Positions 1 through 34,422 of a DNA stretch of 64,000 nt are shown piece after piece. Source of the stretch: Laetmonice hystrix. Its lineage: Eukaryota. A model generated the notes under the pieces. That model did not search any database. It saw only the letters and a list, made by a program, of their open reading frames with translations, and was not told the origin of the DNA. The stretch covers positions 23,810,001 through 23,874,000 of the forward strand of contig OZ249436.1 in assembly GCA_965235115.1 (NCBI GenBank). The letters run 5' to 3'. The position numbers and the translations under genes were made by a program. Each line of letters begins with the position of its first letter. Positions within the stretch are counted from its first letter, which is position 1.

Positions 1-2256
1 GTTTAATAGTAGGCCTAATTATGGTCCTATCTAGCACCGTTTACAGACCACTGAAAATCCTTAGAAAATGTGAATGACGTCACTATGACGTCATAGTTTA
101 TACGTCACGATAGGTAAAAATGTTGGTGTCAATTGCAAGAGTATTTAAGACTTACTATTCATGTTGAGTAGTAACCATGGCTCTATAATACCGTTTCAGA
201 GTTACAGTCATTTGTTTCTCAAAAATGGCTATGACCCAAATTCAATGTCACATGCCATTTCTCTTGTTTCAAAGTTTAGCACCTGGTCGCACCCCCCCCC
301 CCCCCCCCCCTGGCAATATCCCGGGTCATGGGCTGCCACATATCGCCATGTGGGAGGAAGGGGGTCCCCGATAAAATATAATATTTAGCCGACATATTGA
401 TATGTGACCATCCCTGGCCCAGATATTCTCCATCCAATACAATACAATATGTTTATTCACAACCTCGATGGAGGCAAAGGAACAGGGTCAGGGATTGTAT
501 CTTATAGTAGCACTGCTCACTCCATTTGCCACCGCCAGGGCCCAGCCCCCTAGCGTGAGGACAGTGTATAGTCGAGACGTGCTGCTACCTGGTGTCAAAC
601 TTCGCCCCCCCCCCCCCCCCCCCACGGTTGATTGTGTGCTAACAAGATGGGTTTTTGATTTCTTACTCTAGCCATTTCCTTAGCCAAAACGCAGCCATAC
701 TTTTTAAAACGTTACACACAAGAAGCTATAAATGTTTAATCTATACATCGACTTTCAAAGCAAAAGTCTACATTAAATATTTACAAAGACAGGCAGCAGT
801 AGCAATTCAAAGCCATAGCATTAAGCAGAAAGTCATAGCTCTTCAGAAAAGTATATGCTTGATGTGCGACAGGTCTGGCGTTCGATTCCCCATCAAGTCA
901 TTTGCTGTTTTCGTTTTGATGTTGTTTTTCGACTGAATTTGAAAAATATTATGTTTCTCCCCTTTACAATTGCCAGTCATTCGGCTACAGATAATTTACA
1001 GCTATATTTCACGTTTAATGACGAAATATACAGCATACGCCACTGTCTGCAGTGTGGACTTACTATGGAGAACGCCATTGGATTTAACTGAGTTTTGTTA
1101 GTAAATAGCTTCGGTCTTCACATGGCGAGTTCCATTCCGAGACTTGGAATCTCCTCTTCAAAGTTGCCTGACATTGAGCTAAATATCTACTTGAAGTACT
1201 CCCCATAGTTTTAGGCAGAAATATTAGATACTTATTAATACAGAGGGCGATAGGCTCAGCGTCCACAGTCGGCCCATCACGCGGACACCAAGCGAGGCCC
1301 CGACATCACTCACGAAACCAGGTTTCTAGGTCAATCGATCAGTGGTCAAATTGCCTGTCTCTCTTCACGACCTTCTCTTATATAATTGATCTCCGTATTG
1401 TTAATTATACATTTTGCCAATTGAAATTTATATTATCTTAAAGTAGACAGTTTAAAGTCCACACCGTGTAAATATTAAAACGCTGAGCTTATTGTCCTGT
1501 AGTTGAGACGTGCCCCAAATTAAGAAAGAGATGACGTTGTAGATGACGTTGTAGATGACGTCACAAGTCACGTGGCACAAAAAATATGGTACCTAATTAA
1601 AGTAGACATAAAACTTTCTAAGGTTCATTAAGAATTATGGCTCTGTCTCAAATCATTCAAGAGTTACAGCACAGAATCTTCGAAATGACCTAAGTCAAGC
1701 CCAAGTTCAAAACTTTCAGGTCACGTGGTTCAGCGAAAATAGGTCAAATCGCTTATCCACCAAGGAATCTGTTGGAGCTGTCCCTAGAGAGTGCCTCTGC
1801 GAAATATTGTCAAGAATTATCCAAAAATGGGGAAGAAGTAATGATTTAACCGATTTACGAGCTAGGGACCAGGTCTCTCTAAGTTCAAAGGTCAAAGGTC
1901 AAATGAAGGGTCAGACTTATGCAGCACCCTTGCCCGACTAAAATGCCAAGACGGATTTTCGAAATTCCCAAGATGAGGTTCAAAAATGAGCTTTAATGTA
2001 CACAACACGTTTCACGTCATGACGTCATGACGTGACGTTACGTGACGTCATGACGCACCATGAGATCAGAGTTTGTCATCGTGAAGACGTAGCCCAAGTT
2101 TCATTGAGATATCTTGAAAAATGACTGAGATATACGTATAGGTTTACGACTACTACGACTACGACTACTACTACTACTACTACTACTACAGGCATAAAAA
2201 TAAGGAAGACGAAACCAGACAATTTCAAGATCCCTTCCCCTATCGGGGGAAGGGAT
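1..2256 (-). mobile_element. HINE-like element, family D copy 1 (3' part outside the window)
   Basis: Near-identical to 13192-15454. Ends in (ACT)n and the hairpin ATCCCTTCCCC-TATCG-GGGGAAGGGAT (2230-2256). Confidence 0.8.
433..540 (-). mobile_element. Possible LINE (CR1/L2-like) 3' tail carried inside family D (second copy ~13647-13755)
   Basis: Minus strand ends ...GTTGTGAATAAACATATTGTATTGTATTG: AATAAA followed by a short (TATTG)n tail. No recognisable RT peptide. Confidence 0.3.
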
Positions 2257-2263
2257 AATAATA

Positions 2264-2318
2264 GGGAAGACGAAACCACACAATTTCAAAATCCCATCCC
2301 CCACTTGGGGGATGGGAT
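2264..2318 (-). mobile_element. Unmatched 5' terminus of a family A element (host of D copy 1)
   Basis: GGGAAGACGAAACCACACAATTTCAAA plus hairpin ATCCCATCCCCCA-CT-TGGGGGATGGGAT, matching the family A termini at 5388-5565. Confidence 0.75.
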
Positions 2319-2329
2319 AATAATAATAA

Positions 2330-5300
2330 CTAGAAACACTGATTGCTGAAGCAATACAGGGATCCCATCCCCCTGGTTATCATCACTTGTCAACACGTTG
2401 TGAACCCTGATGCAGTGCACACTGGGAAACTGTCGTGCCAAGCCACCTCTCAGATTCCATAACATGAAAACTATTGATTTTAGAGAAGCCATCTTGGTGT
2501 CACATACAGTTGACCTATTAAAAAATCTTGGATTGGTCTATTTGAATGCAATTACAAAATATCCTTTGGTAATCAGTACCAGTTCAATCCTATAATCACA
2601 TGTCTGAATTGCGTGGCGATGGTCAAGAGTGTTCGACTCCAATCGGAGAGGTCCTGGGATCAATCCAGGTACTCGGCATGTTTTTCACTTTTTTATTTTT
2701 CCCCCCTAATTTTTTAAAATAGTCACGTGACCTAAAAAAAATTATATAATAAAGAGCATATGTGACTTCCTATTCATGTACAATAGTAACCAAGGCTCCA
2801 TCTTTCACCGTTTAGAAGTTACAGCCAATTGTTTCTGAAAACGGCCATGACCCCAACTTCAATGCCACGTGGTACCCCTAAAATAGGTCACAGCGCTTTA
2901 TCATAAAGAAGCCCATTGAAGATCTCCATGGAGATTTCCTGAAATCAATTTGGGGTCGATTTGACCAAAAATGTGGGGCGTGAAACCATTTTGTCACTTT
3001 TTGACATATGACTTACATCTCAAGAAGGTTAAAGGTCAGGGGTCAAATGTAGTAACAAAGTTATGGGCACTTAAGTGATAAGGTCCCCGATATGAATAAA
3101 TTTTGTTCTGCTCCTCCAGGGACTCTAGAAATAAGCTATTTTCCCCAACTTTTGATTACGTCATAACTCTATGACGGTACGTCATATGACGTCATGCATA
3201 TAAAAATGAGTTGCGATGCCCATGAGCAAGAGTCCCACCAAGTTTCATTACGATACCTTAAGAAACAACTGAGAAATCGATCATTGTTAACTACTACTAC
3301 GGGTACTACTACTAATACTACAACTACAACAGGTATAATAATAATAACTAGAAACACTGATTGCTGAAGCAATACAGGGATCCCATCCCCCTGGTTATCA
3401 TCACTTGTCAACACGTTGTGAACCCTGATGCAGTGCACACTGGGAAACTGTCGTGCCAAGCCACTTCTCAGATTCCATAGCATGAAAACTATTGATTTTA
3501 GAGAAGCCATCTTGGTGTCACAGACAGTTGACCTATTAAAAAATCTTGGATTGGTCTATTTGAATGCAATTACAAAATATCCTTTGGTAATCAATACCAG
3601 TTCAATCCTGTAATCACATGTCAGAATTGCGTGGCGATGGTCAAGAGTGTTCGACTCGCATCGGAGAGGTCCTGGGATCAATCCCGGTACTTGGCATGTT
3701 TTTTACTTTTTTTATTTTCCCCCCTAATTTTTAAAAATAGTCACGTGACCTAAAAAAATTATATAATGAAGAGCATATATGACTTCCTATTCATGCTCAA
3801 TAGTAACCAAGGCTCCATCTTTCACCGTTTAGAAGTTACAGCCAATTGTTTCTGAAAACGGCCATGACCCCAACTTCAATGCCACGTGGTACCCTTAAAA
3901 TAGATCACAGCGCTTTATCCTAAAGAACCCTATTGAAGGTCCCCATGGAGATTTCCTGAAATCAATTTGGGGTCAATTCGATCAAAAATGTAGGGCGTGA
4001 AACAATTTTGTCACTTTTTGACATATGACTTACATCTCAAGAAGGTTAAAGGTCAGGGGTCAAATGTGGTAACAAAGTTATGGGCACTTAAGTGATAAGG
4101 TCTCCGATATGAATAAATTTTGTTCTGCTCCTCCAGGGAGTCTAGAAATAAGGTATTTTCCCCAACTTTTGATTACGTCATAACTCTATGACGTTACGTC
4201 ATATGACGTCATGCATATAAAAATGAGTTGCTATGCCCATGGGCAAGAGTCCCACCAAGTTTCATTACGATACCTTAAAAAACAACTGAGAAATCGATCA
4301 TTGTTAACTACTACTACGGGTACTACTACTACTACAACTACAACAGGTATAATAATAATAATAACTAGAAACACTGATTGCTGAAGCAATACAGGGATCC
4401 CATCCCCCTGGTTATCATCACTTGTCAACACGTTGTGAACCCTGATGCAGTGCACACTGGGAAACTGTCGTGCCAAGCCACTTCTCAGATTCCATAGCAT
4501 GAAAACTATTGATTTTAGAGAAGCCATCTTGGTGTCACAGACAGTTGACCTATTAAAAAATCTTGGATTGGTCTATTTGAATGCAATTACAAAATATCCT
4601 TTGGTAATCAATACCAGTTCAATCCTGTAATCACATGTCAGAATTGTGTGGCGATGGTCAAGAGTGTTCGACTCGCATCGGAGAGGTCCTGGGATCAATC
4701 CCGGTACTTGGCATGTTTTTTACTTTTTTTATTTTCCCCCCTAATTTTTAAAAATAGTCACGTGACCTAAAAAAATTATATAATGAAGAGCATATATGAC
4801 TTCCTATTCATGCTCAATAGTAACCAAGGCTCCATCTTTCACCGTTTAGAAGTTACAGCCAATTGTTTCTGAAAACGGCCATGACCCCAACTTCAATGCC
4901 ACGTGGTACCCTTAAAATAGATCACAGCGCTTTATCCTAAAGAACCCTATTGAAGGTCCCCATGGAGATTTCCTGAAATCAATTTGGGGTCAATTCGATC
5001 AAAAATGTAGGGCGTGAAACAATTTTGTCACTTTTTGACATATGACTTACATCTCAAGAAGGTTAAAGGTCAGGGGTCAAATGTGGTAACAAAGTTATGG
5101 GCACTTAAGTGATAAGGTCTCCGATATGAATAAATTTTGTTCTGCTCCTCCAGGGAGTCTAGAAATAAGGTATTTTCCCCAACTTTTGATTACGTCATAA
5201 CTCTATGACGTTACGTCATATGACGTCATGCATATAAAAATGAGTTGCTATGCCCATGGGCAAGAGTCCCACCAAGTTTCATTACGATACCTTAAAAAAC

Positions 5301-5565
5301 AACTGAGAAATCGATCATTGTTAACTACTACTACGGGTACTACTACTACTACAACTACAACAGGTATAATAATAATAATAATAATAGGGAAGATGAAACC
5401 ACACAATTTCAAAATCCCATCCCCCACTTGGGGGATGGGATAATAATAGGGAAGACGAAACCACACAATTTCAAAATCCCATCCCCCACTTGGGGGATGG
5501 GATAATAATAGGGAAGACGAAACCACACAATTTCAAAATCCCATCCCCCACTTGGGGGATGGGAT
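2330..5565 (-). mobile_element. Three nested family A HINE-like elements (~1.08 kb each): 2330-5565 > 3348-5503 > 4365-5441
   Basis: Three 3' ends (+ strand CTAGAAACACTGATTGCTGAAGCAATACAGGGATCCCATCCCC at 2330, 3348, 4365), then three stacked 5' hairpins (5414-5441, 5476-5503, 5538-5565). Confidence 0.85.
2602..2678 (+). promoter_or_regulatory. tRNA-derived Pol III A/B-box module in family A (also ~3619-3696, ~4636-4713)
   Basis: GTGGCGATGG (A-box-like) ... GGGATCAATCC (B-box-like), followed directly by T-runs. No canonical cloverleaf. Confidence 0.55.
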
Positions 5566-5567
5566 AA

Positions 5568-7296
5568 CTAGTCGCCAGGTGCCATGGGCACAGGTATCCC
5601 ATTCACCTATTGAGGTTATCATAGGTCGCGTGACCCAAAAAATATTGTGCCGAAGGAAAGATGACTTCCTTTGAGGGGCCATAACATGAAAACTATTGAT
5701 TTTAGGGGAGCCATTTCGGTGTCAGAGACAGCTGACCCATTACCCAATCCAACGGTATTAAAATCAAAAATTAGGTCAACTTGGCCGCCATGTTGGATTT
5801 TTCAAATTCGAGGAAAATGGGTCAAGTTTTCCATCCGAACCCCAATGACGAAAACCAGACGTTGATATCTTTAACCGTTTTAGAGATATCAATGATTTTT
5901 GGTTGAAAATGATCTAAAAGGGTCAACTTTGAGGGGCCATAACATGAAAACTATTGATTTTAGGGGAGCCATCTCGGTGTCAGAGACAGCTGACCCATTA
6001 CCCAATCCAATGGTGTTAAAATCAAAAATTAGGTCAACTTGGCCGCCATCTTGGATTTTTCAAATTCGAGGAAAATGGGTCAAGTTTTCCATCTTAACCC
6101 CAATGGCGAAAACCAGACGTTGATATCTTTAACCGTTTTAGAGATATCAATGATTTTTGGTTGAAAATGACCTAAAAAGGGTCATGGAGCCAGATGGGGT
6201 CACGTGACAGCATTTAAATAGGGAAATGAAAGGTGATATTAGATGTCCCATCAGTTTAGTTAGTAACAATGCACACATCTGGCTGTTTTTCCAAGTTACA
6301 GTCATCTGAAATTACCGATGACGTCATAGGGTCAGGTAGAGCCACGTGACCTAAATAAAAATGGTGTCATTTGAAAGGCCATATATGACTTCCTATCTGT
6401 CCCCAATAGTAACTATGGGCCTATCTAGCTCTGTTTCCAAGTTACTGCTAGCTGAAAATATCGATGACGTCATAGGATCACGTAGGGTCACGTGACCTAA
6501 ATAAAAATGGTGTCATTTGAAAGGCCATACATGACTTCCTATCTGTCTTCAATAGTAACCAATGGCCTATCTGGCTCTGTTTCCAAGTTACTGCTAGTTG
6601 AAAACACTGATGACGTCATGCAGCCATGTAGGGTCACGTGACCTAATTAAAAATGGTTTCATTTGAAAGGCCATCAATGACTTCCTATCTGTCTTCAATA
6701 GTAACTATGGGCCTATCTGGCTCTGTTTCCAAGTTATTACCACATATGTGTCATGAACATGTAAATTGACCCATCTACCAAAATTCAATGGCCCATATCT
6801 GGGTCAATATGGGTCAAATCGAATTTCTGTTGCGTAACTTTATGAATCCGGCCATGTAGTCTCTCAGGAGTCAATTTCAGCCTCATTTCCCTAAAATTCT
6901 GGCACGTGACACGATTTTGTCACATTTTGACCTTTGACCCATACCTCCAGAAGGTCAAAGGTCAGAGGTCAAACTGCCCTCCATAATTTAGCTAGTCACT
7001 TGTCCAATAATGATGATGGCAATAGTTTTTCGAAAGGTCTAATTTACAATGAAATACAGGCCTAAATATCTAGAACCGTTTTTACGTCATTACGTCATGA
7101 CGTTACGTCATATGACGTCATGGGTCAAATGGTCAACTTATCGTACCATGGCCAACCTATGTGCCAAGTTTCATTCAGATATCTTGAAAAACAATACCAA
7201 AGTTAACGGCACTACTACTACTACGGGAATAATAATAAAAAGGAAGATGAAACCATACAATTACAAAATCCCATTCACCTAGAAGGTGAATGGGAT
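5568..7296 (-). mobile_element. Family B HINE-like element, complete and uninterrupted (~1.73 kb)
   Basis: 3' end: CTAG, hairpin GTGCC-ATG-GGCAC, subTIR ATCCCATTCACC. 5' hairpin ATCCCATTCACC-TAGAA-GGTGAATGGGAT (7268-7296). Internal 258-bp duplication (5671/5929) and ~146-bp repeats. Confidence 0.85.
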
Positions 7297-9100
7297 AACT
7301 AGTCGCCAGGTGCCATGGGCACAGGTATCCCATTCACCTATTGAGGTTATCATAGGTCACGTGACCCAAAAAATATTGTGCCAAAAGAAAGATGACTTCC
7401 TTTGCGGGACCATAACATGAAAACTATTGAATTTAGGGGAGCCATTTCGGTGTCAGAGACAGCTGACCCATTACCCAATCCAATGGTATTAAAATAAAAA
7501 ATTAGGTCAAATTGGCCGCCATCTTGGATTTTTCAAATTCGAGGAAAATGGGTCAAGTTTTCCATCCAAACCCCAATGGCGAAAACCAGACGTTGATATC
7601 TTTAACCGTTTTAGAGATATCAATGATTTTTGGTTGAAAATGACCTAAAAGGGCCAACTTTGAGGGGCCATAACATGAAAACTATTGACTTTAGGGGAGC
7701 CATCTCGGTGTCAGAGACAGCTGACCCATTACCCAATCCAATGATGTTAAAATAAAAAATTAGGTCAACTTGGCCGCCATCTTGGATTTTTCAAATTCGA
7801 GGAAAATGGGTCAAGTTTTCCATCTTAACCCCAATGGCGAAAACCAGACGTTGATATCTTTAACCGTTTTAGAGATATCAATGATTTTTGGTTGAAAATG
7901 ACCTAAAAAGGGTCATGGAGCCAGATGGGGTCACGTGACAGCATTTAAATAGGGAAATGAAAGGTGATATTAGATGTCCCATGAGTTTAGTTAGTAACAA
8001 TGCACACATCTGGCTGTTTTTTTTCAAGTTACAGTCATCTGAAATTACCGATGACGTCATAGGGTCAGGTAGAGCCACGTGACCTAAATAAAAATGGTGT
8101 CATTTGAAAGGCCATATATGACTTCCTATCTGTCCCCAATAGTAACTATGGGCCTATCTAGCTCTGTTTCCAAGTTACTGCTAGCTGAAAATATCGATGA
8201 CGTCATAGGGTCACGTAGGGTCACGTGACCTAAATAAAAATGGTGTCATTTGAAAGGCCATACATGACTTCCTATCTGTCTTCAATAGTAACCAATGGCC
8301 TATCTGGCTCTGTTTCCAAGTTACTGCTAGCTGAAAACACTGATGACGTCATGCAGCCATGTAGGGTCACGTGACCTAATTAAAAATGGTTTCATTTGAA
8401 AGGCCATCTATGACTTCCTATCTGTCTTCAATAGTAACTATGGGCCTATCTGGCTCTGTTTCCAAGTTATTACCACATATGTGTCATGAACATGTAAATT
8501 GACCCATCTACCAAAATTCAATGGCCCATATCTGGGTCAATATGGGTCAAATCGAATTTCTGTTGCGTAACTTTATGAATCCGGCCATGTAGTCTCTCAG
8601 GAGTCAATTTCAGCCTTATTTCCCTAAAATTCTGGCACGTGACACGATTTTGTCACATTTTGACCTTTGACCCATACCTCCAGAAGGTCAAAGGTCAGAG
8701 GTCAAACTGCCCTCCATAATTTAGCTAGTCACTTGTCCAATAATGATGATGGCAATAGTTTTTCGAAAGGTCTAATGTACAATGAAATACAGGCCTAAAT
8801 ATCTGGAACCGTTTTTACGTCATTACGTCATGACGTTACGTCATATGACGTCATGGGTCGAATGGTCAACTTACCTTGCCATGGCCAACCTATGTGCCAA
8901 GTTTCATTCAGATATCTTGAAAAACAATACCAAAGTTAACGGCACTACTACTACGGGAATAATAACTAGTATAACAGATCGCAAAGCGATACTGGGATCC
9001 CATTCACCTCGAGCATTCTTTTAGCAATGGGGCAAGTATATACCATATAATGTCCCTTTAGCCACGCACTACCTATTTGCCGCGCACCCCAGAATAAGCA

Positions 9101-9536
9101 TGTCAGGCAGTATGGCTTGGTGGCAAGAAGTGGGACTCCCATTGGAAGGGTCCCGGGTTCAATCCCGGGACAAGTCACTTTTTAATTTTTTTGTTTTTCA
9201 CTCTCCAATTTTTTATAAATGGTTACGTGACCTAAAAAAAATCTATAATAAAAGGGCTTCCTGTCTGTCTTCAATAATCACTTAAGGCCTATCTGGCTCT
9301 GTTGCTAACATATTGCCAAGAATGTGTTAATTGACCGATGTACCAAATTTCAAGGGGTCATGTTTGGCTCTAACTTCATCCATTTACAAATTACAGCCCT
9401 CACAAAATATAGGTTCACTGCCTGTGATAATCAGTACCAGTTCAATCCAGAATGAGCATGTCAGACAGTATGGCTTGGTGGCAAGATGTGTGACTACCAT
9501 GGGACAGGACCTGAGTTCAATCCCGGGTCTAGTCAC
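9101..9536 (+). promoter_or_regulatory. Two tRNA-derived A/B-box modules in family C (9101-9177, 9459-9536; present in all eight copies)
   Basis: TGGCTTGGTGG (A-box) ... GGGTTCAATCC or GAGTTCAATCC (B-box), each followed by oligo-T. Confidence 0.6.
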
Positions 9537-10471
9537 GTTATTAATTTTTTTTGATTTTCCCCCTCTAATTTTAAAAAATGGTCACGTGACCTAAAAAAAA
9601 TATATAATAGAAGAGCATATATGAATTCCTATCTGTCTTCAATAGTAACTTAAGGTCTATCTGGCTCGGTTTCTAAGATATTGCTATGAATGTGTTAATT
9701 GACCCACGTACCAAAGTTCAAGGGCTCATAATTAGGTAAAAATGGGGGAGATCAAAATTCTGTGTCCGTAACTTTTCGAAACTCCCCATCTAGTCTCCCT
9801 AAACTCGATTTTGACTCAATTTGACTAAAATTCTGAAGCGTGAAAAGATTTGGTTCCATTTTGACCTATGACCTAGATCTCAACGAGGTCTAAGGTGAGA
9901 GGTCAAATTGCCCCCCAAAATCTTAGCCCCTACTTGCCCAATAAAGATGTCACTAATTGTTTTTCAAACGTTTCCATTTTCAATGAAATAGAGGCTCATA
10001 TATATAAACACGTATTACGTCATAACTCCATGACATAACGTCATATCACGTCATGACTCATATGCCTGATACCCAATCCCAATACCTATCTACAGACCAA
10101 GTTTCATTAAGATATCTTTAAAATAAATATCAAGTTGAGGCCCGAGGGTCACTACTACTACTACAGGAATAATAATAACTAGTGGCAAGGTGCCATTGGC
10201 ACAGGTATCCCATTCACCACTGGAGGTGACCATAGTCAAGTGCCCTCTCTAACAGCATTGAAACTATTAGATTAGGGGAGCCATCTCGGTGTCAGAGACA
10301 GCTGACCTATTACACAATCCAATGGTGTTAAATTAGGAAATTAGGTCAACTTGGCCGCCATCTTGGATTTTTTAAATTCAGGTCAAATGGGTTAAGTTTT
10401 CCACCCTCTGGTGAAAACCAGACATTGATATCTTTAACCGTTTTAGAGATATCAATGATTTTGGGTCACAT

Positions 10472-11750
10472 AGGGTCACGTGACCTAAATAAAAATGGTA
10501 CCATTTGAAAGGCCATATATGACTTCCTATCTGTCTTCAATAGTAACTATGGGCCTATCTGGCTCTATTTCCAAGTTACTGCTAGCTGAAAACACTGATG
10601 ACGTCATACAGCCATGTAGGGTCACGTGACCTAAATAAAAATGGTACCATTTGAAAGGCCATATATGACTTCCTATCTGTCTTCAATAGTAACTATGGGC
10701 CTATCTGGCTCTGTTTCCAAGTTACTGCTAGCTGAAAACACTGATGACGTCATACAGCCATGTAGGGTCACGTGACCTAAATAAAAATGGTGTCATTTGA
10801 AAGGCCATATATGACTTCCTATCTGTCTCCAATAGTAACTATGGGACTATCTAGCTCTGTTTCCAAGTTACTGCTAGCTGAAAATACCGATGACGTCATA
10901 CGGCCATATACGGTCACGTGACCTAATTAAAAATGGTGTTATTTGAAAGGCCATATATAACTTCCTATCTGTCCCCAATAGTAACTATGGGCCTATCTAG
11001 CTCTGTTTCCAAGTTACTGCTATCTGAAAATATCGATGACGTCATAGGGTCACGTGACCTAAATAAAAATGGTGTCATTTGAAAGGCCATACATGACTTC
11101 CTATCTGTCTTCAATAGTAACTAAGGGCCTATCTGGCTCTGTTTCCAAGTTACTGCTAGCTGAAAATACCGATGACGTCATAGGGTCACGTAGGGTCACG
11201 TGACCTAAATAAAAATGGTGTCATTTCAAAGGCCATACATGACTTCCTATCTGTTTTCAATAGTAACTAAGGGCCTATCTGGCTCTGTTTCCAAGTTACT
11301 GCTAGCTGAAAATACCGATGACGTCATAGGGTCACGTAGGGTCACGTGACCTAAATAAAAATGGTGTCATTTGAAAGGCCATACATGACTTCCTATCTGT
11401 CTTCAATAGTAACTAAGGCTTTATCTGCAACCATTTACAAGTTATGACCCTTAGAAAATCTAGGTGACCTCATTATGACGTCATAGGTCACGTGACCTTA
11501 AAAATAAAGGTCTATAATGAAAGATCATATATGACTTCCTATTAGTGTTCAATAGTAACTATAGCTCTATCTTCAACCATTTACTAGTTATAGCCCTTGG
11601 AAAATATAGGTGACCTCCTTATGACGTCATAGGTCACGTGACCTGAAAAATAAAGGTGGATAATGAAAGAGGATATATGACTTCCTATATGTGTTCCATA
11701 GTAACTTACCCTCTATCTTGCAGCGTTTTTGAGTTATAGCCACACCCCGA
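10472..11750. repeat. Internal tandem array of ~146-bp units (~9 copies) in B'
   Basis: AGGGTCACGTGACCTAAATAAAAATGG recurs at 10472, 10618, 10764 and onward; units carry GTCACGTGAC and TGACGTCA palindromes. Confidence 0.9.
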
Positions 11751-21819: not shown

Positions 21820-24563
21820 GGAAGACGAAACCATACAATTTCAAAATCCCATTCACCCTCTAGGGTGAATGGGATAATAATAATAATAAGGAAGACGAAA
21901 CCATACAATTTCAAAATCCCATTCACCCTCTAGGGTGAATGGGATAATAATAACTAGCATAACAGATCGCAAAGCGATACTGGGATCCCATTCACCTCGA
22001 GCATTCTTTTAGCAATGGGGCAAGTATATACCATATAATGTCCCTTTAGCCACACACTACTTATTTGCCGCACACCCCAGCATAAGCATGTCAGACAGTA
22101 TGGCTTGGTGGCAAGAAGTGGGACTCCCATTGGAAGGGTCCCGGGTTCAATCCCGGGACAAGTCACTTTTTAATTTTTTTGTTTTTCACTCTCCAATTTT
22201 TTATAAATGGTTACGTGACCTAAAAAAATCTATAATAAACGGGCTTCCTATCTGTCTTCAATAATCACTTAAGGCCTATCTGGCTCTGTTGCTAACATAT
22301 TGCCAAGAATGTGTTAATTGACCCATGTACCAAATTTCAAGGGCTCATGTTTGGCTCTAACTTCACCCATTTACAAATTACAGCCCTCACAAAATATTGG
22401 TTCACTGCATGTGATAATCAGTACCAGTTCAATCCAATATGAGCATGTAAGACAGTATGGCATGGTGGCAAGATGTGTGACTGCCGTGGGAAAGGATGTG
22501 AGTTCAATCCCGGGTCGAGTCACGTTATTAATTTTTTTTTTATTTTTCCCCTCTAATTTTAAAAAATGGTCACGTGACCTAAAAAAAATCTATAATAAAA
22601 GAGCATACTTGAATTCCTATTTGTCTTCAATAGTAACTTAAGGCCTATCTGGCTCTGTTTCTAAGATATTGGCATGAATGTGTTAATTGGCCGACGTACC
22701 AAAGTTCAAGGGCTCATAATTAGGTCAAAATGGGGGAGATCAAAATTCTGTGTCCGTAACTTTTTGAAACTCTCCATGTAGTCTCCCTAAACTCAATTTT
22801 GACTCAATTTGACTAAAATTCTGGAGCGTGAAAAGATTTGGTCACATTTCGACCTATGACCTAGATCTCAACGGGGTCTAAGGTCAGAGGTCAAATTGCC
22901 CCCCAAAATCTTAGCCCCTACTTGCCCAATAAAGATGTCACTAATTGTTTTTCAAACGTTTCCATTTTCAATGAAATAGAGGCTTATATATATAAACACG
23001 TATTACGTCATAACTCCATGACATAACGTCATATCACGTCATGACTCATATGCCTGATACCCAATCCCAATACCTATCTACAGACCAAGTTTCATTAAGA
23101 TATCTTTAAAATAAATATCAAGTTGAGGCCCGAGGGTCACTACTACTACTACTTGTATAATAATAATAAGGAAGACGAAACCATACAATTTCAAAATCCC
23201 ATTCACCCTCTAGGGTGAATGGGATAACTAGCATAACAGATCGCAAAGCGATACTGGGATCCCATTCACCTCGAGCATTCTTTTAGCAATGGGGCAAGTA
23301 TATACCATATAATGTCCCTTTAGCCGCACACTATTTATTTGCCTCGCACCCCAGCATAAGCATGTCAGACAGTATGGCTTGGTGGCAAGAAGTGGGACTC
23401 CCATCGGAAGGGTCCCGGGTTCAATCCCGGGACAAGGCACTTTTTAATTTTTTTGTTTTTCACTCTCCAATTTTTTTATAAATGGTTACGTGACCTAAAA
23501 AAAATCTATAATAAACGGGCTTCCTATCTGTCTTCAATAATCACTTAAGGCCTATCTGGCTCTGTTGCTAACATATTGCCAAGAATGTGTTAATTGACCC
23601 ATGTACCAAATTTCAAGGGCTCATGTTTGGCTCTAACTTCACGCATTTACAAATTACAGCCCTCACAAAATATTGGTTCACTGCATGTGATAATCAGTAC
23701 CAGTTCAATCCAATATGAGCATGTAAGACAGTATGGCAAGGTGGCAAGATGTGTGACTCCCGTGGGAAAGGATGTGAGTTGAATCCCGGGTCTAGTCACG
23801 TTATTAATTTTTTTTATTTTTCCCCTCTAATTTTAAAAAATGGTCACGTGACCTAAAAAAAATCTATAATAAAAGAGCATACTTGAATTCCTATCTGTCT
23901 TCAATAGTAACTTAAGGCCTATCTGGCTCTGTTTCTAAGATATTGGCATGAATGTGTTAATTGGCCGACGTACCAAAGTTCAAGTGCTCATAATTAGGTC
24001 AAAATGGGGGAGTTCAAAATTCTGTGTCCGTAACTTTTTGAAACTCCCCATCTAGTCTCCCTAAACTCAATTTTGACTCAATTTGACTAAAATTCTGGAG
24101 CGTGAAAAGATTTGGTCACATTTCGACCTATGACCTAGATCTCAACGAGGTCTAAGGTCAGAGGTCAAATTGCCCCCAAAAATCTTAGCCCCTACTTGCC
24201 CAATAAAGATGTCACTAATTGTTTTTCAAACGTTTCCATTTTCAATGAAATAGAGGCTCATATATATAAACACGTATTACGTCATAACTCCATGACATAA
24301 CGTCATATCACGTCATGACTCATATGCCTGATACCCAATCCCAATACCTATCTACAGACCAAGTTTCATTAAGATATCTTTAAAATAAATATCAAGTTGA
24401 GGCCCGAGGGTCACTACTACTACTACTTGTATAATAATAATAAGGAAGACGAAACCATACAATTTCAAAATCCCATTCACCCTCTAGGGTGAATGGGATA
24501 ATAATAAGGAAGACGAAACCATACAATTTCAAAATCCCATTCACCCTCTAGGGTGAATGGGAT
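15547..24563 (-). mobile_element. Family C copies 2-8 (~1.27 kb each): 15547-16817; 16881-24563 hosting 18094-19364, 19367-21945 (hosting 20583-21875), 21954-23225 and 23228-24499
   Basis: Seven near-identical bodies. Counting copy 1, there are eight 3' ends and eight C-type 5' hairpins (ending 16817, 16878, 19364, 21875, 21945, 23225, 24499, 24563). Confidence 0.85.
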
Positions 24564-24636
24564 AATAAAAAGGAAGATGAAACCATACAATTACAAAATC
24601 CCATTCACCTAGAGGGTGAATGGGATAATAATAAAA

Positions 24637-24761
24637 AGGAAGATGAAACCATACAATTACAAAATCCCATTCACCTAGAAGGTGAATGGGATAATAATAA
24701 GAAAAAGGAAGACGAAACCATACAATTACAAAATCCCATTCACCTAGAAGGTGAATGGGAT
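24637..24761 (-). mobile_element. Two unmatched family B 5' termini (bodies predicted upstream of the window)
   Basis: Hairpins 24664-24692 and 24733-24761 match the B terminus at 7268-7296. Confidence 0.7.
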
Positions 24762-27172
24762 AATAACTAGCGCCGATGTGGCTTGGGCCAACATCTTGTA
24801 TCCCATCCCCTGGCAATGAAAATCATAGATACATTATCATGTTAGACTACCTCCACGTCATCGATAGGCCCGTAGATCGAAAGAGCATATATTATTTCTT
24901 CCTATATGACCTCAATAATTAATATTGGTCATCTATCAATGACGTCATTGTCACGTAATACGTCCCCCTACATAATAGATGTTGTTACCTTTTGAAAAAA
25001 CATGTACCTATTATAGCTTCAATAGTAACCATAGCTCTACCTGGCCCCCTTTCAGAGTTATAGCTGTTTCAATAATATTGGTGATCTATCAACATCGATT
25101 TTCTTTTTCATTTCGATTTTGGAGACCCCTCTGCCGAAAATCCTGGGCCCGTGGCTGTATTTTGAGTTAGCCTAACAATAATGTTTGTCAATTCTTCAAA
25201 AAGAAAGAGTGGGGATAGGGCCTATATAGAGGGGGCCCACGCCAGGCAGCGCCAGGCAGGCCCTTCAGTGCTAGCGACTACCGCCCGGCAATCAATTTTT
25301 TCTTTCCTATAGTTATTTCTTCTTTCCTACAGCTATATTCTCACTGTGATCTCACCATTTGATCTCTCACTGTGAGATCATTTTGACATCTCTCTGACAT
25401 AAAACAGTACCAATATATTGGGCTTTCCTTAGAAGAATACGATCTTACAGCAATCTCATAGCGATCTAACCATGATCTCAATTTCTTCTCACACTGTGAG
25501 ATCATTTTGACATCTCTCTGACATAACAGTACCAATATATTTTTGAAATGACGTTGTCGCACCACCTTCCTGGGTTCCCACAAGGACATTCTAGAAAAAA
25601 TCCTGGCTTAATCAGTTCTAACCATTGCGTGGGCACGCTGTAGTATCTCCTGTGCCAGTTAAGCACTGACGCTAAACACCCGTACCCCCGTCCTCACTAT
25701 TGATGTTTCCCGTCGGAAATTCAAATTGGTTTTTCTATACTGGGTTGTTTTAAAATTAAAAAAATATCATCTCTACGTCCCTGTATTGTTCTTTTCACAA
25801 TTAGCGAAAAAATAAAGCGTAATTTTACACAATGATAGCTGTTTTTGAATGACATGACGTGAATTATTTGAAGTCGCTAGAAGTTCACCTATTGACTGTG
25901 TTTCGGACAGTCTAGTCAATCTCAATGATAACAGCGCCACCACCTGAGATTTACATGATGTCAAGGTGATGTCGGAATTTTATAACATTTTGACATCAGA
26001 AAGGTCTCAATATTTGTTCTCACATAGTGAAGTCATTATGAGATTGCTGTGAGATCAATGTGTGATCTTACTAGCTGAGATTTACGTGATATCAAGGTGA
26101 TGTTGGAATTTTATAACATTCTGACATCAGAAAGATCTCACTATTTGTTCTCGCATAGTGATATCATTATGGGATTGCTGTGAGATCAATGTGTGATCTC
26201 ACCAGCTGACATTTATGTGATATCAGGGTGATGTCGGAATTATATCTCATTCTGACCTCATGAGATCATACTGACATCATAATGATTGCGACTTCACACC
26301 TGTGAGGAAAAAGTGACCTCACTGTGATCTCAGCGTTAGCTCACTTCCCGACTGGGAAGGATTTAGCTAGGCCTATGGCAAATTGTCCCTTTGTGTATTC
26401 TGAATACACAATCACATTCCTCCAACCCCTCCCTGACTGGGAGGAAAATATAGGGCGCAGCTGGCCAAGAGTTCTCTCTTAACTTCAAGAAGACGGCTTA
26501 ATATCATCAGTGTTGTTTTATTCCGCTGTCCTCCAATATAAGATTCAAGAATATAATATATTAGACAGTAATACCTACAGTTTTATATAAATACAAATGC
26601 CCAGCTATTCAATTAAGTATTTTCCCAGCACAAGGGTCCATCAACATCAACCCATCCTGACTGGGGGGAATGGGGCAGTCACCGCCCGACCTTATCAGCA
26701 GCAGTTACGTAACACTGCCAACACCGGGCAGGGAGAGGCGGCTGGCCATGCACAGCGGGTGATTTGTGTATTCAGAGATGCCAACCGTTAGTGTAAAAAT
26801 ATCATTGTTATCCATTAAAACTTACAATTCTGGTCAAATTATCTTTTAAAAAAAAGAACTAAACAATCAGTGGTATACCTGAATCTATAGACTTTGTAAT
26901 TGTTGTATTTGTATGTGGCTATCTTAAACATGTTTCAAGGTACAGACTGTCAAAGCTAGATTAAAGATATTTCATCATAAATTAAAAATTATTGGTAAAT
27001 TTATGAAAAGGATTATGCAAAGTGATCAATCGTCAATGCCAGCACATATCTAATTACCAAATACACGATTCCTAAATGACTGAAGCCGTTTTAGAAAAAA
27101 ATGTCAAAAGTGACAAACTTCAAAGTCACGTGGTACAGCGAAAATAGGTCTAATGGCTTATTGCTGAAGTTT

Positions 27173-27817
27173 TCCAGTCGCTGTGATATCAATTTGAAAT
27201 CACATATCTTACTGTGATCTCACCATTTGATCACTCACTGTGAGATCATTTTGACATCTCTCTGACATAACAGTACCAATATATTTGGCTTTGCTTAAAA
27301 GAATACGATCTCACAGCAATCTCATAGCGATCTAACCATGATCTCAATTTCTTCTCACACTGTGACATCATTTGGACATCTCTCTGACATAACAGTACCA
27401 ATATATTTTTGAAATGACGTTGTCGCACCACCTTCCTGGGTTCCCATAGGGACACTCTAGAAAAAATCCTGGCTTAGGCAGTTCTAACCATTGCGTGGGC
27501 ACGCTATAGTATCTCCTGTGCCAGTTAAGCACTGACGCTTAACACCCATACCCCGTCCTCACTATTGATGTTTCCCGTCGGAAATTCAAATTGGTGTTTA
27601 CGTGATATCAAGGTGATGTCGGAATTTTATAACATTCTGACATCAGAAAGATCTCACTACAATTGTTCTCGCATAGTGATATCATTATGGGATTGCTGTG
27701 AGATCAATGTGTGATCTCACCAGCTGACATTTATGTCATATCAGGGTGATTTCGGAATTATATCTCATTCTGACCTCATGAGATCATACTCAGCGTTAGC
27801 TCACATACCCGACTGGG
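27173..27817. mobile_element. MITE-like insert with CCAGTCG...CGACTGGG ends and GTGAGATC/GATCTCAC subterminal repeats; longer partial copy at ~25340-26356
   Basis: Short inverted ends plus many oriented subterminal repeats, an architecture resembling CMC/EnSpm elements. TSD not resolved. Confidence 0.5.
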
Positions 27818-28828
27818 AAGGGTTTAGCTCTAGGCCTATGGCAAATTGTCACTTTGTGTATTCTGAATACACAATCACATTCTTCCAACCCCAACCTGAC
27901 TGGGAGGAAGAGGGGGAGTAGTAACCGACCCGCCGGGCGGCCGGCCCTTATCACCAGCACTTACGTAACCCCCTGCCGACCCTGGGCCTGGCTTCACCGC
28001 GGGCGTTCTGTATATTCAGAAATGCCAACCGTCAGTGTAAACATATTAATGTTATCCATTAAAACTTACAATTCTGGCCAGATTACCTTTCCAAAAAAAG
28101 AACTAAACAATCAATGGTATACCTGAATCTATAGACTTTGTAATTGTTCTATTTGTATGTGGCTATCTTAAACACGTTTTATGGTAGAGCCTGCAAAGTC
28201 AGATAAGATATATTTTATCATAAATTAAAAATTATTGGTAAATTTATGAAAAGAATTATTCACAGTGATCAATCGTCAATAGCAGCACATATCTAGTGAC
28301 CAAATAGACGATTCCTAAATGACTGAAATGGTTTTAGAAAAAAATGTCAAAAGTGACAAACTTCAAAGTCACGTGGTACAGCGACAATAGGTCAAATTGC
28401 TTATTCCCGACTCGAGCAAATAAAGCTCACTACAGAAGACCTGTCCACCAAAAAGTATTATATTTTCTCAAAAAATGGCACAGGAGTAGGAATTTGACCA
28501 CTTTAGGACATATGACCTACTTTTCCATGACGTCAAAGGTCAAAGGTCAAAATAATGAAGATTAGTAAAAAGGGTCTATGCCCGATTATTAGACTATGAA
28601 AAGTTTTGGGAAACTATGGATTATGACTTCAAGAAATGCCTATAAGTTTGAAATGCAAAATACGTCATGACGTCATGACGTGACGTCGTATGACGTAATA
28701 ATTATAGGGATCGATTCTCCCTACCATTCTGAATGTCCATGCCAAGTTTTATTTGGATATCTGTATCAATGACTGAGCTGTATGCACAAAAGCAACTACT
28801 ACAACTACTACTACTACTACGGGAATAA

Positions 28829-30536
28829 CTAGATAGGATGTGGCGATAGCCACATTATGAATCCCATCCCCCTGGGGCGTTTCCGTCCGACCCATTGTAT
28901 TCTATTCGTTTTCAACATGAAACATTGCTCCATCTTGTACCTTTCACAAGAAATTCCAATGCCATCATTATCATAGGCATCGGAAGATAATTTTCCAGGG
29001 GGGGGGGCAAAGATACAGGGTTCAGCACCGTTTAGCATGTGCAGGCCTGTGGAAATTTTGAGAATATGTCAATGACGTCAATATGACGTCATACGATATG
29101 CTATATAATAAATATTAAAAGAGCATATCTTTCCATCGTGTTTAAGAGTGACTATGGGCCTTTCTGGCACCGTTTAGCAGTTACACTTACAGGACAAAGT
29201 AAATCATTAAGCGACACAGCAGGATTATACTAAAATATGAACATACTTATACCTTTATAAGGTGATTTTACGTTACTATGCGAGTATTATGCATTTTATC
29301 TTTTATTTTTGTGATTAGGCTCTGAGCCAAACAGAGCAGTGCTTTATACAGTCTGCAATTTGGTGGCTCCATCTGTAGGTGCTGCGATCCCGGCCTTGTA
29401 GAACCAATGGGCGAGCGCTAAGGGATAGGACATGCCTCAGCAAATATTGAGATTTGAATGCTTTGGCCCATTTTGGAGCAAAAGAAAGGTATTAAATTGC
29501 ATGTAAAACGGGATGATTTTCAAGATAGGCCCTAAAGAGAATTTCCTTTCAGATGGTGTAGTCAGCTATTTACAGAATGTACAACAGTTCATATAGGCTG
29601 AAAGTTTGAAAAATAAACACCACTTTTTCGGCACCCATGTTCACATAGTAGCATATGCGGCCACCAGGGGGCGGCAGGTAAGCGTGGGAACACACGTGTC
29701 CTCAGCCCTTCGCCTGCCGAGCAGCGCCATGAACTTCTGCAGAATGATGCTTTTTAATATAGTTTTCGAAGGCGCCTCTTTGCCAGTAGCAGGGATATGG
29801 TGGCCAAATGGTTAAATCTACGATAAACCAGGGAACCGTGCTTTTGAACGGTGTATATCCTTTATTTATACAACCCTACTTAACATGCGGTATGAAAGAA
29901 AGAATATACCACAGTTATCATGTCGCTATAATTACCTTCACCACCACCCCCCCCCCCCCCCATCCCAAAGCAAAATCCTGGATCATCCGCCAGTCTTTTA
30001 TGGGGATATTTAATGAAACAGAACGCAGTGCAGTGGGCAGTGTCCAGGTGTGTGTATGTGAGTAGAAAGTAAATCTTGTGGGTTTTGGGCCAAAATCGGG
30101 TTCGTCTGTTCTGAGAACTGTTGGTCAGGGAATCATACCTATACCTAGATGAAGGGTTTGCAGCAGTAGCGGTGGCGACCTTCCCTCCCGCCAGGACGTC
30201 CCTTCCACCGCCAGTCCCCCTCCCCAGCCTGCTGACTTCAGTCCGATTAAGGAGAAGGGCGTCTGTCACCCCCGATCCCCATATACCAAGTACTAACTAA
30301 CTGCTGTTCCAAATAATGTGGCCATAATAATGTGGGTCTTATTCAATGTGTTACTGATATCTCAGTCACCCTAACCCCCATGTACCCAAGCACTAATTAG
30401 GCCTACTCTGGTACTTCTCCAAATAATGTGGTCTTAATAATGTGGGTCTTATTTAATGTCTTACTGATGAAGATGTGGTGAAAAAAGGGGAGCTTTTTCA
30501 AGTAGAAAATGTGGCAAGGCTAGCCATATAAAGATC

Positions 30537-30606
<70 letters not shown>

Positions 30607-33600
30607 TTAACCAACAGCAACAAGGGTGGGGGTTGCAGAAGATAATTGCAGGTCACTAATTGATCCCTTAATTTATGTGCAGACCGCCACTGCCTGCCTG
30701 TCTGCGCTCCATCTATTAATAGGGTTGGGAGAGACATGTGCGGTCAGACAACATGTGCAAGCATTTCAAAAACTTAGACCCCCTACATGTAACGAATGAT
30801 TAGGCCTACTTCCTTTCATTATTAGAAGTCTCCTCAAAAGGTTTGATACCAGGTAACAAAACTCGCAACGGCGATACGGCCATAATTGTGGTCAGTGTGA
30901 GCAAGGAGTATAGAATTCTATACTCGTTGGTGTGAGCAGGGGAGGCAGGCAGGCAGGCGGGCGGGCGTTCATTGCAGGGTGTCTGCTGCCAACATCCCCC
31001 ATCTCTTTCCAACCGTCGCCTGCCCAAACTATAATGAGTATTGCCTTTATATTTTAGAGGCCTGAAGCTTAACATGTTAGCAAGCTACTCCTAAAATTTC
31101 ATGACGAAGGATGTGATAATGTCGGATATATACACATGCTCTACTTTTAGTCTACCATAGCGACCGTGTCCACGCAGGACTGACCCACATAAGAGAGGGA
31201 ACATGTCACTAAGTAGGTCATCCATTAATCGTGAAATTCGCCGCCTGTCCTCACTATTTTGGTATATATTGAACTGCTGTCTTGTTAATTATAAATTTTG
31301 CTCATTGAAATTTATAATATAAAATAGCAGACACTTTAAAGTCCCTACCCTATACATATTAAAGGGTGTGAGCTTACCATTCCGTCGCTAATGCAAATTA
31401 TACAAATGACGTTGTAGATGACGTAAGAAGTCACGTGACACAAAAATTATGATACCTAATTAAAGAGGCCACCAAAGTGTATCAGGTTCATGAACAATTA
31501 TGCCCCTGTCTGGAGTCTTTCAAACGTTACAGCGATTATTCTCCGAAAAGACCCACATTCAAAACTTCAAGGTCACGTGGTTCTGTGAAAATAGATCAAA
31601 TTGCTTATCCGCTGCTCTATTTTTTGAAGCTTTCATTGGAGAATGTTTTTACCCTATATTATCAAATTTTACCCCAAAATGGGGAAGCATTTACGATTTA
31701 ACCGATTTGTGACGTTTGACCCAGTTCTCCCTAAGGTCAAAGGCCAAAGGTCAAATTAAGGGTCATATTTAGGCAACACCCTTGCCTGATTATAGTGGCA
31801 CGAGGTATTTTTGAAATTCCCGATATGGGCTGAGAAAATGGGCCTAAATGTACAAAAGAAAATCTACGTCATAACGTCATGACATGACGTCATATGACGT
31901 CATGCTTCAAACTGGCATTTCTCTCTGGTGTCCTTAATATGCCTACCAAGTTTCGTATTGATATCTTGAAAAATGAGCGAGATATGATGCTATAAGGGAA
32001 TGAGTCTAACTACTACAACCTACGGGAACTAGATAGGATGTGGCGATGGCCACATTATGAATCCCATCCCCCTGGGGCGTTCCCGTTCTACTAATTTTCA
32101 ACATGAAACATGGCTCCGTCTTGCACCTATCACAAGTTATAATCCTTGCCTTAATAGATGCCAATAATGTCATTATGATGTCAGACAGTACCCTGCTGTA
32201 CATCATGAATCTTGGCGTCAAATGAAAGCAGGGTTCCCTGCTTTTTGTGAACATCCAATTCCCTGAGTGTTTTCCTGAGAATTCCCTGAGAAATTTCCAA
32301 AATTCCATGTGATATATATTTGTGTTTTATAGGTAGCATAACCGATTATAACGGTCCGGAGAGGTGCATTCTTCACACTCTATCAACATTACAAAGCCAC
32401 GATATAAATAAGTCATTTTTTCAGGGATTCCAATACCGTCATAATATGATCATTATGGTCTCCGGTCGATCTGGCCCATGACCGATATGGCCTGGTTGAT
32501 ATGGCCCAGGTAGTTGGTCAATATGGCCCACCCCCGGTCAATATGGTACACTAGCTAGCTTTTCACGGTAATGCCATCATGAGTTGCTAGTCTGGGAATA
32601 TTTCCCTTTGAGGCTGAAGGTGGAGATGTCAGCACCTGTACCTGAGTGTGAGAAAGCTTTTGACGGCACGCTGCATAAATAATATTGGTATCAATTGAAA
32701 GAGCATAATCTTTCCATTCATGTTTAATAGTAACTATGAGAGTATCTCGCACCGTTTAGCAGTTTTACTTACAGGCCTCTGAAAATCGTTATAGTACTCC
32801 ACAACATATCTAGTGCAACTCTCCTCCTATGTAAGATTCAAAAACATCTATGTATTAGACAGTTATACCTACAGTTCAGAACCACAGTTAATTCAGTTAT
32901 GTCTGTTCTGAATACACATAGGCCTAATCCTCCAACCCTGCCCTGATTGGGAGGAAAGGGGGAGTATAGTGACTCACGACCCACCGGCCCAAACTGTGAA
33001 ATCTATCCACATCAATCTGCTGGCTCACTAAACCAAGGACAGCTGGCCAAGAGTTGTTTTGTAACTTTAAGAAGACAGCCTTCATGAGAGTTTTGTTTTA
33101 TTGCTTTCCTCCAATATAAGATTAAAAAAATATGTATTAGACAGTTACACATACAGCTCTAAAGCACAGCTAATTCAGTTGGGGCTGTTCTGGACATACA
33201 GATTCCTCCAACCCCACCCTGACTGGGACGACCGGGTAGTCGACACCAGCCGGCCTTATCAGCAGCAATTACATAACTCTCAGCCCCGGCCAGCGCCGGG
33301 CGGCACCAGCTCACACTGCGGGCGGTCTGTGTATACAGAGACTGCAACCATCCTAGTGCCAAACATAATAATTTGTGAAGACTATACCCATGAAAACTTA
33401 TGATTTTGGCTATATTGCCTTTCGAGAAAAAGAATTAAACAATCAGTGGTATACCTGACTCTATGCACTTTATAACAGACGTACTTGCATATGGCTATGT
33501 TCAATACCTTTCAAGATACAGCCCGTAGAAGTTCGGTTACATAAATCAGAAAGATGACGTCATAGATGACATCACAAGTCTCGTGATACAAAAATTATGG

Positions 33601-34295
33601 TACGTAATTAAAGAGGACATAAACCTTTATAAAGTTAATGAACAATTAAGGCTCTGTCTTAAATCTTTCAAAAGTTACAGCAAGGACCTTTCAAAATGAC
33701 CGAAGTTCAAAATTTCAAGGTCACGTGGTTCAGTGAAAATAGGTCAAATTGCTAAACCCGATGCACCAGTTTTTGGAGCTTTCAGTGGAGAATGTTTCTA
33801 CCAGATATTGTCAAATTTCACCAAGAAATGGGGAAGAAGACGCGATTTAACCGATTTGTGACCTCTGACCCAGTTCTCTCTAAGCTTAAAGGTCAAAGGT
33901 CAAATCAAGTGTCAGATTTAGGCAACACCCATGCCTGATTATATTGCTATGAGGCGTTTTTGAAATTCCCAATATGAGCTTAGAAAATGGGCCTCAATGC
34001 ACAAAACACAATTTACGTCATGACGTCATGACGTGACGTCATATGACGTCATGCTTCAAACTGGCAATACTCTTTGGCGTCCTTAATATGCCTACCAAGT
34101 TTTGCTTTGATATCATGAAAAATGAGCGAGATATGGATATATTTAGTGAATAGTCTAACTACTACGGGAATAATAATACAGAAGATGAAACCACACAATT
34201 TCAAAATCCCATCCCCTTGATGGGGGATGGGATAATAATACGGAAGATGAAACCACACAATTTCAAAATCCCATCCCCTTGATGGGGGATGGGAT
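28829..34295 (-). mobile_element. Family F elements: F1 28829-34295 hosting F2 32029-34233
   Basis: Two 3' ends CTAGATAGG-ATGTGGC-GATR-GCCACAT-TATGA-ATCCCATCCCC and two identical 5' hairpins (34206-34233, 34268-34295). Confidence 0.78.
30537..30596. repeat. (GA)n microsatellite
   Basis: About 30 uninterrupted GA units. Confidence 0.95.
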
Positions 34296-34364
34296 AATAA
34301 TACGGAAGACGAAACCATACAATTTTAAGATCCCATCCCCCTATCGGGGGGATGGGATAATAAA

Positions 34365-34422
34365 AAGGAAGACGAAACCATACAATTTCAAAATCCCATT
34401 CACCCTTTAGGGTGAATGGGAT
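34365..34422 (-). mobile_element. Unmatched C-like 5' terminus: outer edge of the nested stack
   Basis: ATCCCATTCACCCT-TT-AGGGTGAATGGGAT (34393-34422); unrelated sequence follows. Confidence 0.7.

Follow-up and report, generated by a model that had tools for sequence, protein, structure and literature searches.

Evidence for recursive, site-specific nesting of HINE-type Helentrons in a 58.6-kb stack of the Laetmonice hystrix genome

As described in the accessible parts of the relevant papers, HINE, DINE-1 and Cg_HINE elements carry a 5' subterminal inverted repeat (subTIR) with its inverted repeat, a left microsatellite and satellite-like repeats (PMC7492417, PMC4067079, PMC2374699); they are non-coding, end with a 3' subTIR followed by a palindrome, and insert at TT without target-site duplication (PMC7492417, PMC4067079). 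We analysed a stack of Helentron elements in a 64,000-nucleotide stretch of DNA from Laetmonice hystrix (hereafter the window; contig OZ249436.1, C1:23810001-23874000), and these elements resemble Cg_HINE, HINE and DINE-1 in these anatomical features (PMC7492417, PMC4067079). Nesting at a specific site is not described in the accessible text of the Cg_HINE papers (a count of the word 'nested' in that of PMC7492417 gave 0), and double arrays within one Cg_HINE element are ascribed there to recombination (PMC7492417).

Self-insertion near the 5' end of a relative has been proposed for FoHeli, a Helitron2/Helentron-like element of Fusarium oxysporum; duplicated 5' termini of <200 bp occur there, at most five per copy, and composites can be mobilised from the outer 5' terminus (PMC5148889, PMC13342296; accessible sections). 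The stack is like FoHeli in having insertions near a relative's 5' end and multiple 5' termini (PMC5148889). According to the same sections, FoHeli self-insertion was deduced in the main from copies of a single family that have several 5' termini but only one 3' terminus (PMC5148889, PMC13342296), whereas in the stack all 3' ends are retained, at least 10 families are interleaved to a depth of 6, the insertion site can be placed within a few nucleotides and there is an empty site for comparison. The original prediction for this DNA knew of no description of multi-family nesting of such order. We found no description of mirror-ordered multi-family Helentron nesting at a defined site in the literature searched (a 2021 paper on complex oyster loci lies outside that comparison), but self-insertion of this kind is already in print, at least in the accessible part of PMC5148889. 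The ordered multi-family nest is a new form of the self-insertion proposed for Fusarium.

Bracket-like nesting that records insertion order is familiar from the nested long terminal repeat retrotransposons of grasses. Those nests, unlike the stack, lack a unique landing site, vary in orientation and carry target-site duplications. Tandem arrays of truncated Helitrons with many 5' ends per 3' end occur in plant centromeres (Xiong et al. 2016, as summarised in PMC12628747); in that summary they are single-unit and rolling-circle-made, and not mirror-ordered multi-family brackets (PMC12628747). For oyster loci, the accessible sources invoke insertion, deletion, tandemisation and recombination (PMC12628747, PMC11136912).

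Element anatomy and pairing of the ends

The assembly comprises 627 Mb in 35 contigs, and the host contig is 73.8 Mb long. Besides the window, 60 kb of upstream DNA was parsed, so that 124 kb was compared in total; negative coordinates lie upstream of the window. The region 1-34422 consists of non-coding repeats, with every element on the minus strand.

Read on their own strand (a vertical bar marks a junction), the elements start with T|TATCCC and a 12-13-bp terminal hairpin (5' subTIR plus inverted repeat), followed by a leader of ~27 nt, (TTA)n, a (GTA)n-type microsatellite and a body with 130-260-bp tandem repeats (periods 146, 258 and 131 bp). They end with a subTIR, a short palindrome and CTAGT|T, and the 3' subTIR starts 29-34 nt from the element's 3' end, the same distance separating it from the 3' junction. 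On the plus strand, (ACT)n and (ATA)n stand before every terminus. The 5' hairpins fold at z -3.9 to -7.4, and 0 of 200 shuffles folded as well; the 3' palindromes, with stems that differ among families, do not reach significance one by one (z -0.6 to -1.5). Families share a conserved leader and GGGAT, and the hairpin stems co-vary. The stack has no coding capacity, the sole stop-to-stop frame of at least 150 aa in the window (39346-39813) lying outside it. These elements are non-autonomous Helentrons of the HINE / DINE-1-like type, and they show the features that the original prediction gave as established for that type (subTIRs, 5' microsatellite, 3' stem-loop, TT insertion without target-site duplication).

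Canonical Helitrons (HLE1) start with 5' TC, end with 3' CTRR, insert between A and T and have no terminal inverted repeats. That class was rejected because of the 5' end TATCCC, the subTIRs and the T|T target; the 3' CTAG(T) of the elements resembles the CTRR of HLE1.

ACTAG occurs 24 times in window positions 1-36000. At 18 of these sites it continues with a short palindrome and an ATCCC... subTIR and marks a 3' end; the remaining 6 were rejected as element ends. Ends and elements are as follows, each named by family letter and, where needed, by the position of its 3' end.

2329, 3347, 4364, 5567, 7298, 8965, 10178, 12230, 15546, 16880, 18093, 19366, 20582, 21953, 23227, 24766, 28828, 32028: Helentron 3' ends in the window
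2252, 2314, 5437, 5499, 5561, 7292, 15450, 15531, 16813, 16874, 19360, 21871, 21941, 23221, 24495, 24559, 24622, 24688, 24757, 34229, 34291, 34354, 34418: ~58-bp hairpin 5' termini with GGGATA end (n=23)
1..2256, minus strand: D copy 1, 3' end at -1572, 5' terminus 2200-2256; 93.7% identical to D 12230
2261..2318, minus strand: 5' terminus of an A host with its 3' end at -10326 (stack parse)
2329..5565, minus strand: A host, enclosing A 3347-5503, which itself encloses A 4364-5441
5567..7296, minus strand: simple B element, defining the B 3' end and B 5' terminus
7298..24626, minus strand: B host enclosing both C hosts (stack parse)
8965..16878, minus strand: C host, enclosing B' 10178-15535 (with D 12230-15454 inside) and C 15546-16817
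16880..24563, minus strand: C host, enclosing C 18093-19364, C 19366-21945 (with C 20582-21875 inside), C 21953-23225 and C 23227-24499
24636..24692, minus strand: 5' terminus of a B host with its 3' end at -22351 (stack parse)
24705..24762, minus strand: solo B-type 5' terminus, partner 3' end absent; the single imbalance of the stack
24766..34358, minus strand: E host, enclosing F 28828-34295, which itself encloses F 32028-34233
34365..34423, minus strand: 5' terminus of the outermost host G, 3' end 58.6 kb upstream at -24160; same as in uninterrupted G copies
34424..35085, no strand: right flank, a non-Helentron repeat hosting the G insertion; uninterrupted in 7/7 paralogs, with an inverted match to -26998..-26877

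With 3' ends as opening and 5' termini as closing brackets, the 18 3' ends and 23 5' termini reproduced exactly the bracket string originally given for 1-34422. All 18 opens were closed, as predicted without crossing, by a terminus of the same 11-nt subTIR class, and 5 closes were left unmatched. When the close labels were shuffled 200,000 times, no more than 17 pairs matched (mean 8.6); when the order of events was shuffled 200,000 times, none reached 18 clean pairs and the best clean parse held 11. A blastn-short sweep with 32 representative ends returned no extra plus-strand ends inside the window region, and a search of -24160..34423 returned no minus-strand ends within the full stack. Tandem Repeats Finder reports the stacks of termini merely as 61-70-bp minisatellites. 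The three A termini of the A host 2329-5565 and its guests occupy 5384-5565.

After the upstream DNA was added, the stack extended from -24160 to 34423, and its length is 58.6 kb instead of the 34 kb first proposed. It contains 29 opens, 30 closes and 29 complete elements, with a maximum depth of 6. All 29 pairs agree in 11-nt subTIR class, compared with at most 22 in 200,000 label shuffles. The upstream 24 kb is well nested too: no I, J, D or A pair is left open, and two identical B'' 3' ends close with two identical termini. No Helentron-like DNA was found between -27000 and -24161. Unmatched upstream 3' ends had been expected in the order D, A, B, B, C-like, and four of the five were present in that order (D at -1572, A at -10326, B at -22351 and G, the C-like end, at -24160). 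The second B 3' end was absent from -24160..-22351 and from the rest of the stack in a search with 14 representative 3' ends (E <= 1e-3). The terminus at 24705-24762 is therefore solo, and the depth at D copy 2 is 6 rather than the predicted 7. The solo terminus probably arose by deletion between two adjacent B bodies, leaving B) B), or from an extremely 3'-truncated copy.

The closing of G was settled by other copies. In the four copies in which the G body runs straight into its terminus (L017, L018, L019 and L026), that terminus is identical to 34365-34423 (4/4), so G is closed 58.6 kb away. A naive parse in which G is closed by the B-type terminus at 24761 and 34422 is left over disagrees with these copies and was rejected. 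Similarly, the E terminus at 34354 is that of 6/6 uninterrupted E copies, and the B' 3' end recurs on contig C6 with a paired terminus that differs from 15531 by one base in the hairpin region. As a hint on dating, the best match elsewhere is 97% identical for G and 100% for its guest E.

Landing site and empty sites

Landing sites were tallied from the sequence contexts of the 29 3' ends together with measured spacers. Fifteen insertions follow a host microsatellite and (ATA)n tract, five follow a sibling terminus plus (ATA)n, eight abut a sibling terminus directly (GGGATA|ACTAG), and one, that of G, lies in non-Helentron DNA. All 28 internal insertions are in or at the edge of a (TTA)n tract beside a resident 5' hairpin and share one orientation. 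None of the 29 is in a body or in the conserved leader, though the leader has several TT, and no spacer is shorter than 31 nt. When nested DNA is left out of the count, the distance between the host hairpin and the rightmost guest is 34 nt in 9 of 15 hosts and 31, 37, 38, 40, 40 and 52 nt in the other six. Among the eight abutting junctions, four unite different families, so these four are not concatemers; the other four join members of the same family head-to-tail.

Two empty sites were identified. On contig C18, an E(F()) composite is 99.64% identical to the window over 3636 nt spanning the E|F junction, with further matches of 99.8% and 99.1% reaching 32028, and it lacks F 32028-34233. The empty site there reads ...cctacggga|ataatacgg... 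(GGGA|ATAATACGG), which gives a precise T|T insertion with no target-site duplication. The site of the whole stack, gcagta|taataatgacatacg, is uninterrupted in 7/7 paralogs of the flanking repeat, a family with 62 genome matches of 82-94% identity; the junction of G in this non-Helentron repeat is ...GTATA|ATAATGAC. Insertion takes place at T|T and duplicates no target sequence.

Beside the G 3' end (-24169..-24161, locus L011), the filled site has 6 extra nucleotides relative to paralogs L044-L050, and these create a 10-nt match to sequence flanking guests within G hosts. They suggest a short 3' transduction from a donor that was nested in another G. Alternatively, the 8 nt 'cgtgtata' to the left of G could be the remnant of a truncated G-type host (making the counts 30:30); we judged this less likely, since the complete G would then be closed by a B-type terminus, contrary to 4/4 G copies. 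A 122-bp inverted match (87.7%) lies on both sides of the stack (34424-35085 versus -26998..-26877).

Recurrence in the genome and copying of composites

The same nesting was found at other loci. In C6:19970001-19990000, 8/8 pairs matched with none left over, and the G in that block is closed 15.3 kb away; C3:4136001-4146000 has 3 matched pairs, with 2 opens cut off by the end of the block. Another Helentron sits at the same site in 8 of 12 G copies examined, that of the window included.

Exact patterns located 42 3' ends and 46 termini of G genome-wide (reversed controls, 0). Pairing by order gave 17 simple pairs (<=2.3 kb) and 25 long ones. On inspection, the terminus in 20 of the 25 long pairs is preceded by the terminus of another element and hence closes a nest; the guest terminus adjoining that of G is most often F-type. 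Pairing of all 42 by hit order was rejected as a result, because 5 of the 25 long pairs proved wrong on inspection.

Some sub-stacks were apparently copied ready-made. Five of 12 E loci share an identical E|F junction, and the C18 composite is followed by an I-type terminus; its host is therefore a different one, and E+F moved together. Guests C 15546 and C 18093 are 99.9% identical, and their hosts, C 8965 and C 16880, share 99.8% identity, which points to duplication of a C(C()) unit that was later given different guests. From these comparisons, E+F and C+C were probably mobilised as composites. A 4364 within A 3347, the two being 99.9% identical, suggests local self-insertion. The claim that the stack, despite its look of a complex satellite, grew by repeated targeted insertion into relatives, with nesting as a record of order, thus stands on the long-range termini, the empty sites and the recurrence, but not for E+F and C+C, which were probably copied as composites.

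Proposed mechanism and competing explanations

The stack was very probably produced by recursive site-specific nesting of HINE-type Helentrons, including same-orientation T|T joining at the 5' tract or the end of a resident. A new copy integrates between T and T, in the orientation of the host and with no target-site duplication, either in the (TTA)n some 31-40 nt behind the resident 5' hairpin or at the exact resident end. Each arriving copy carries a fresh (TTA)n tract, which makes the process recursive; in effect, each element would carry the preferred target of its relatives. The outcome is runs of 3' ends with their bodies, followed by runs of 5' termini in mirror order. Orientation follows from the T|T rule alone, as (TTA)n has TT on one strand only.

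Several observations weigh against this account or narrow it. For the reason just given, the shared orientation is not independent evidence of hairpin recognition. Of the 52 plus-strand (ATA)>=3 tracts that the 124 kb contains, just 2 are clear of Helentron ends, so that preference for the motif is inseparable here from end recognition. One close stays without an open, as the second B 3' end is missing. Outside the stack, the same 124 kb holds ~26 5' termini against 9 3' ends; termini evidently accumulate without complete partners too, and balanced nesting is not universal. In the 5 mis-paired long G pairs the terminus sits on its own body, and one of these proved to be a copy truncated at its 3' end. 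Around two intact Helitron_like_N frames, stretches of 12.5 kb and 20 kb showed no ends of this type. Finally, the public pieces listed over 23000-28800 (3 runs of one sample, stored as contigs, with depths in the thousands) are about 100-355 bp long, too short to verify the order of junctions or to tell alleles apart.

The strongest competitor accepts the nest as real but holds that a preference for TTATTA-like motifs suffices, hairpin and leader being irrelevant to the choice of target. We consider it a serious possibility, if somewhat short of probable. The non-Helentron junction of G and the A-rich flanks followed by other outermost copies agree with it, as do the single-strand T|T in the tract, which accounts for orientation, and the fact that 50/52 (ATA)>=3 tracts of the 124 kb belong to Helentrons. 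It leaves unexplained that 8 of the 28 internal insertions hit an element end exactly, outside the tract, that the rightmost insertion is at 34 nt in 9/15 hosts, near the 29-34 nt of the 3' junction, and that the ~27-nt leader is conserved while the family stems differ.

The hairpin and leader may themselves be recognised. The 5' module is laid out like the 3' end: it too has a subTIR copy and then a small stem-loop, with T|T ~30 nt further on. Judging from this likeness, the tract may be chosen as a mimic of the element's own 3' end (hairpin arm, small stem-loop and T|T ~33 nt downstream), a suggestion that we make tentatively and hold to be rather doubtful. In prokaryotes, the IS200/IS605 and IS91 HUH transposons have subterminal hairpins that are recognised, cut at a fixed distance and use targets that resemble their own end junctions. 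Their single-strand transposases liken them to the end-mimic idea, though they differ in being prokaryotic, and we know of no experimental link between them and Helentron targeting. In a stronger and, to our minds, unlikely version, the 5' module would be a built-in landing pad that mimics the 3' end, where a Rep-helicase-endonuclease joins copies, and would also act as a premature terminator that sheds 60-70-bp solo termini. If so, relatives would home recursively while sparing host genes, solo termini would pile into minisatellites, and a transposon would build and extend its own satellite-like arrays.

Tandemisation or recombination, in which crossing-over or slippage separately multiplied the units of 3' end plus body and the 5' termini, would account for the solo B terminus, for the many solo termini outside the stack and for near-identical neighbours (A 3347/4364, C 8965/16880). 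It is nonetheless very unlikely: it offers no way for a family-specific terminus to end up 12-58 kb away from the matching 3' end with mirror-ordered families in between, as seen for the G, B, A and B hosts, and it predicts neither equal counts (29/29) nor an empty site that lacks exactly one whole element. Equally improbable is that rolling-circle amplification of truncated circles, or terminator bypass, made arrays with many 5' ends. In the accessible text of PMC12628747, this model of Xiong et al. is recognised by many 5' ends combined with one 3' end, and four same-family head-to-tail junctions are present in the stack; however, such arrays repeat one unit, while here up to 4 families share a stack of termini and mirror the order of the 3' ends, none of which has been lost, and 4/8 head-to-tail junctions mix families. 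As for an assembly artefact in this highly repetitive region, units 99.8-99.9% identical lie side by side and their copy number could be mis-assembled, but the same nesting logic at independent loci on other contigs, the pairing of ends by family over tens of kb and the 73.8-Mb contig make this hardly credible.

An autonomous partner was sought through Helitron_like_N matches, of which the genome has 125, most within open frames of 2000-3600 aa. One frame on contig C12 holds Helitron_like_N (Rep), PIF1 and Exo_endo_phos domains. The nearest match noted is C1:23920336-23920929, 46 kb past the end of the window, and many matches share chromosome zones with nests (C2 38-40 Mb, C7 23-24 Mb, C3 8.8 Mb, C8 29 Mb). 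Given the 125 matches and the three-domain frame, activity of such elements in this genome is plausible.

Read in this way, loci annotated as minisatellites or shuffled Helitron debris become readable insertion histories, and a target rule at nucleotide level is available for an animal Helentron; to our knowledge, targeting by animal Helentrons has been the subject of no biochemical study. Recursive nesting also offers a simple origin for the 'multiple 5' termini' of Helitron-like elements, and it suggests how rolling-circle elements may seed satellite-like DNA while sparing genes. With a bracket parser that works on family-specific ends, repeats could be better annotated and insertions better dated in bivalve genomes, where a large share of 2-4-kb structural variants are rolling-circle elements, mostly HINEs, according to the accessible text of 10.64898/2026.02.10.705023.

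Outside the stack, runs of 5' termini occur at -59009..-58676, -53146..-52816, -29279..-28977 and 56214-56468. The plant type of truncated-Helitron amplification may, by analogy, explain these solo-terminus runs. The upstream runs (loci L014 and L012/L011) mix several families, and on that strand the upstream 36 kb has only two 3' ends (-58662 and -56222). A second Helentron cluster, at window positions 49879-57974 and in the opposite orientation, has three complete 3' ends (57974, 56212, 54539) and eight 5' termini; five of the termini form the run at 56214-56468, and four of these five have no partner 3' end within the window. A palindromic double terminus lies at about 49912-49957.

The bodies of the elements show some further features. 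T-arm motifs resembling those of tRNA (GGTTCAATCCC...) occur in C bodies, e.g. at 9100-9530 and 17020-17450, and suggest captured SINE-like pieces; ARAGORN found no tRNA genes in 1-36000. Palindrome clusters of the TGACGTCA type (CRE-like) lie just inside the microsatellite of most elements, for example at 2010-2055, 3160-3215 and 4185-4235. Long homopolymer C tracts of 15-23 nt occur in the D body (290-312 and 603-625) and also at 34560-34580.

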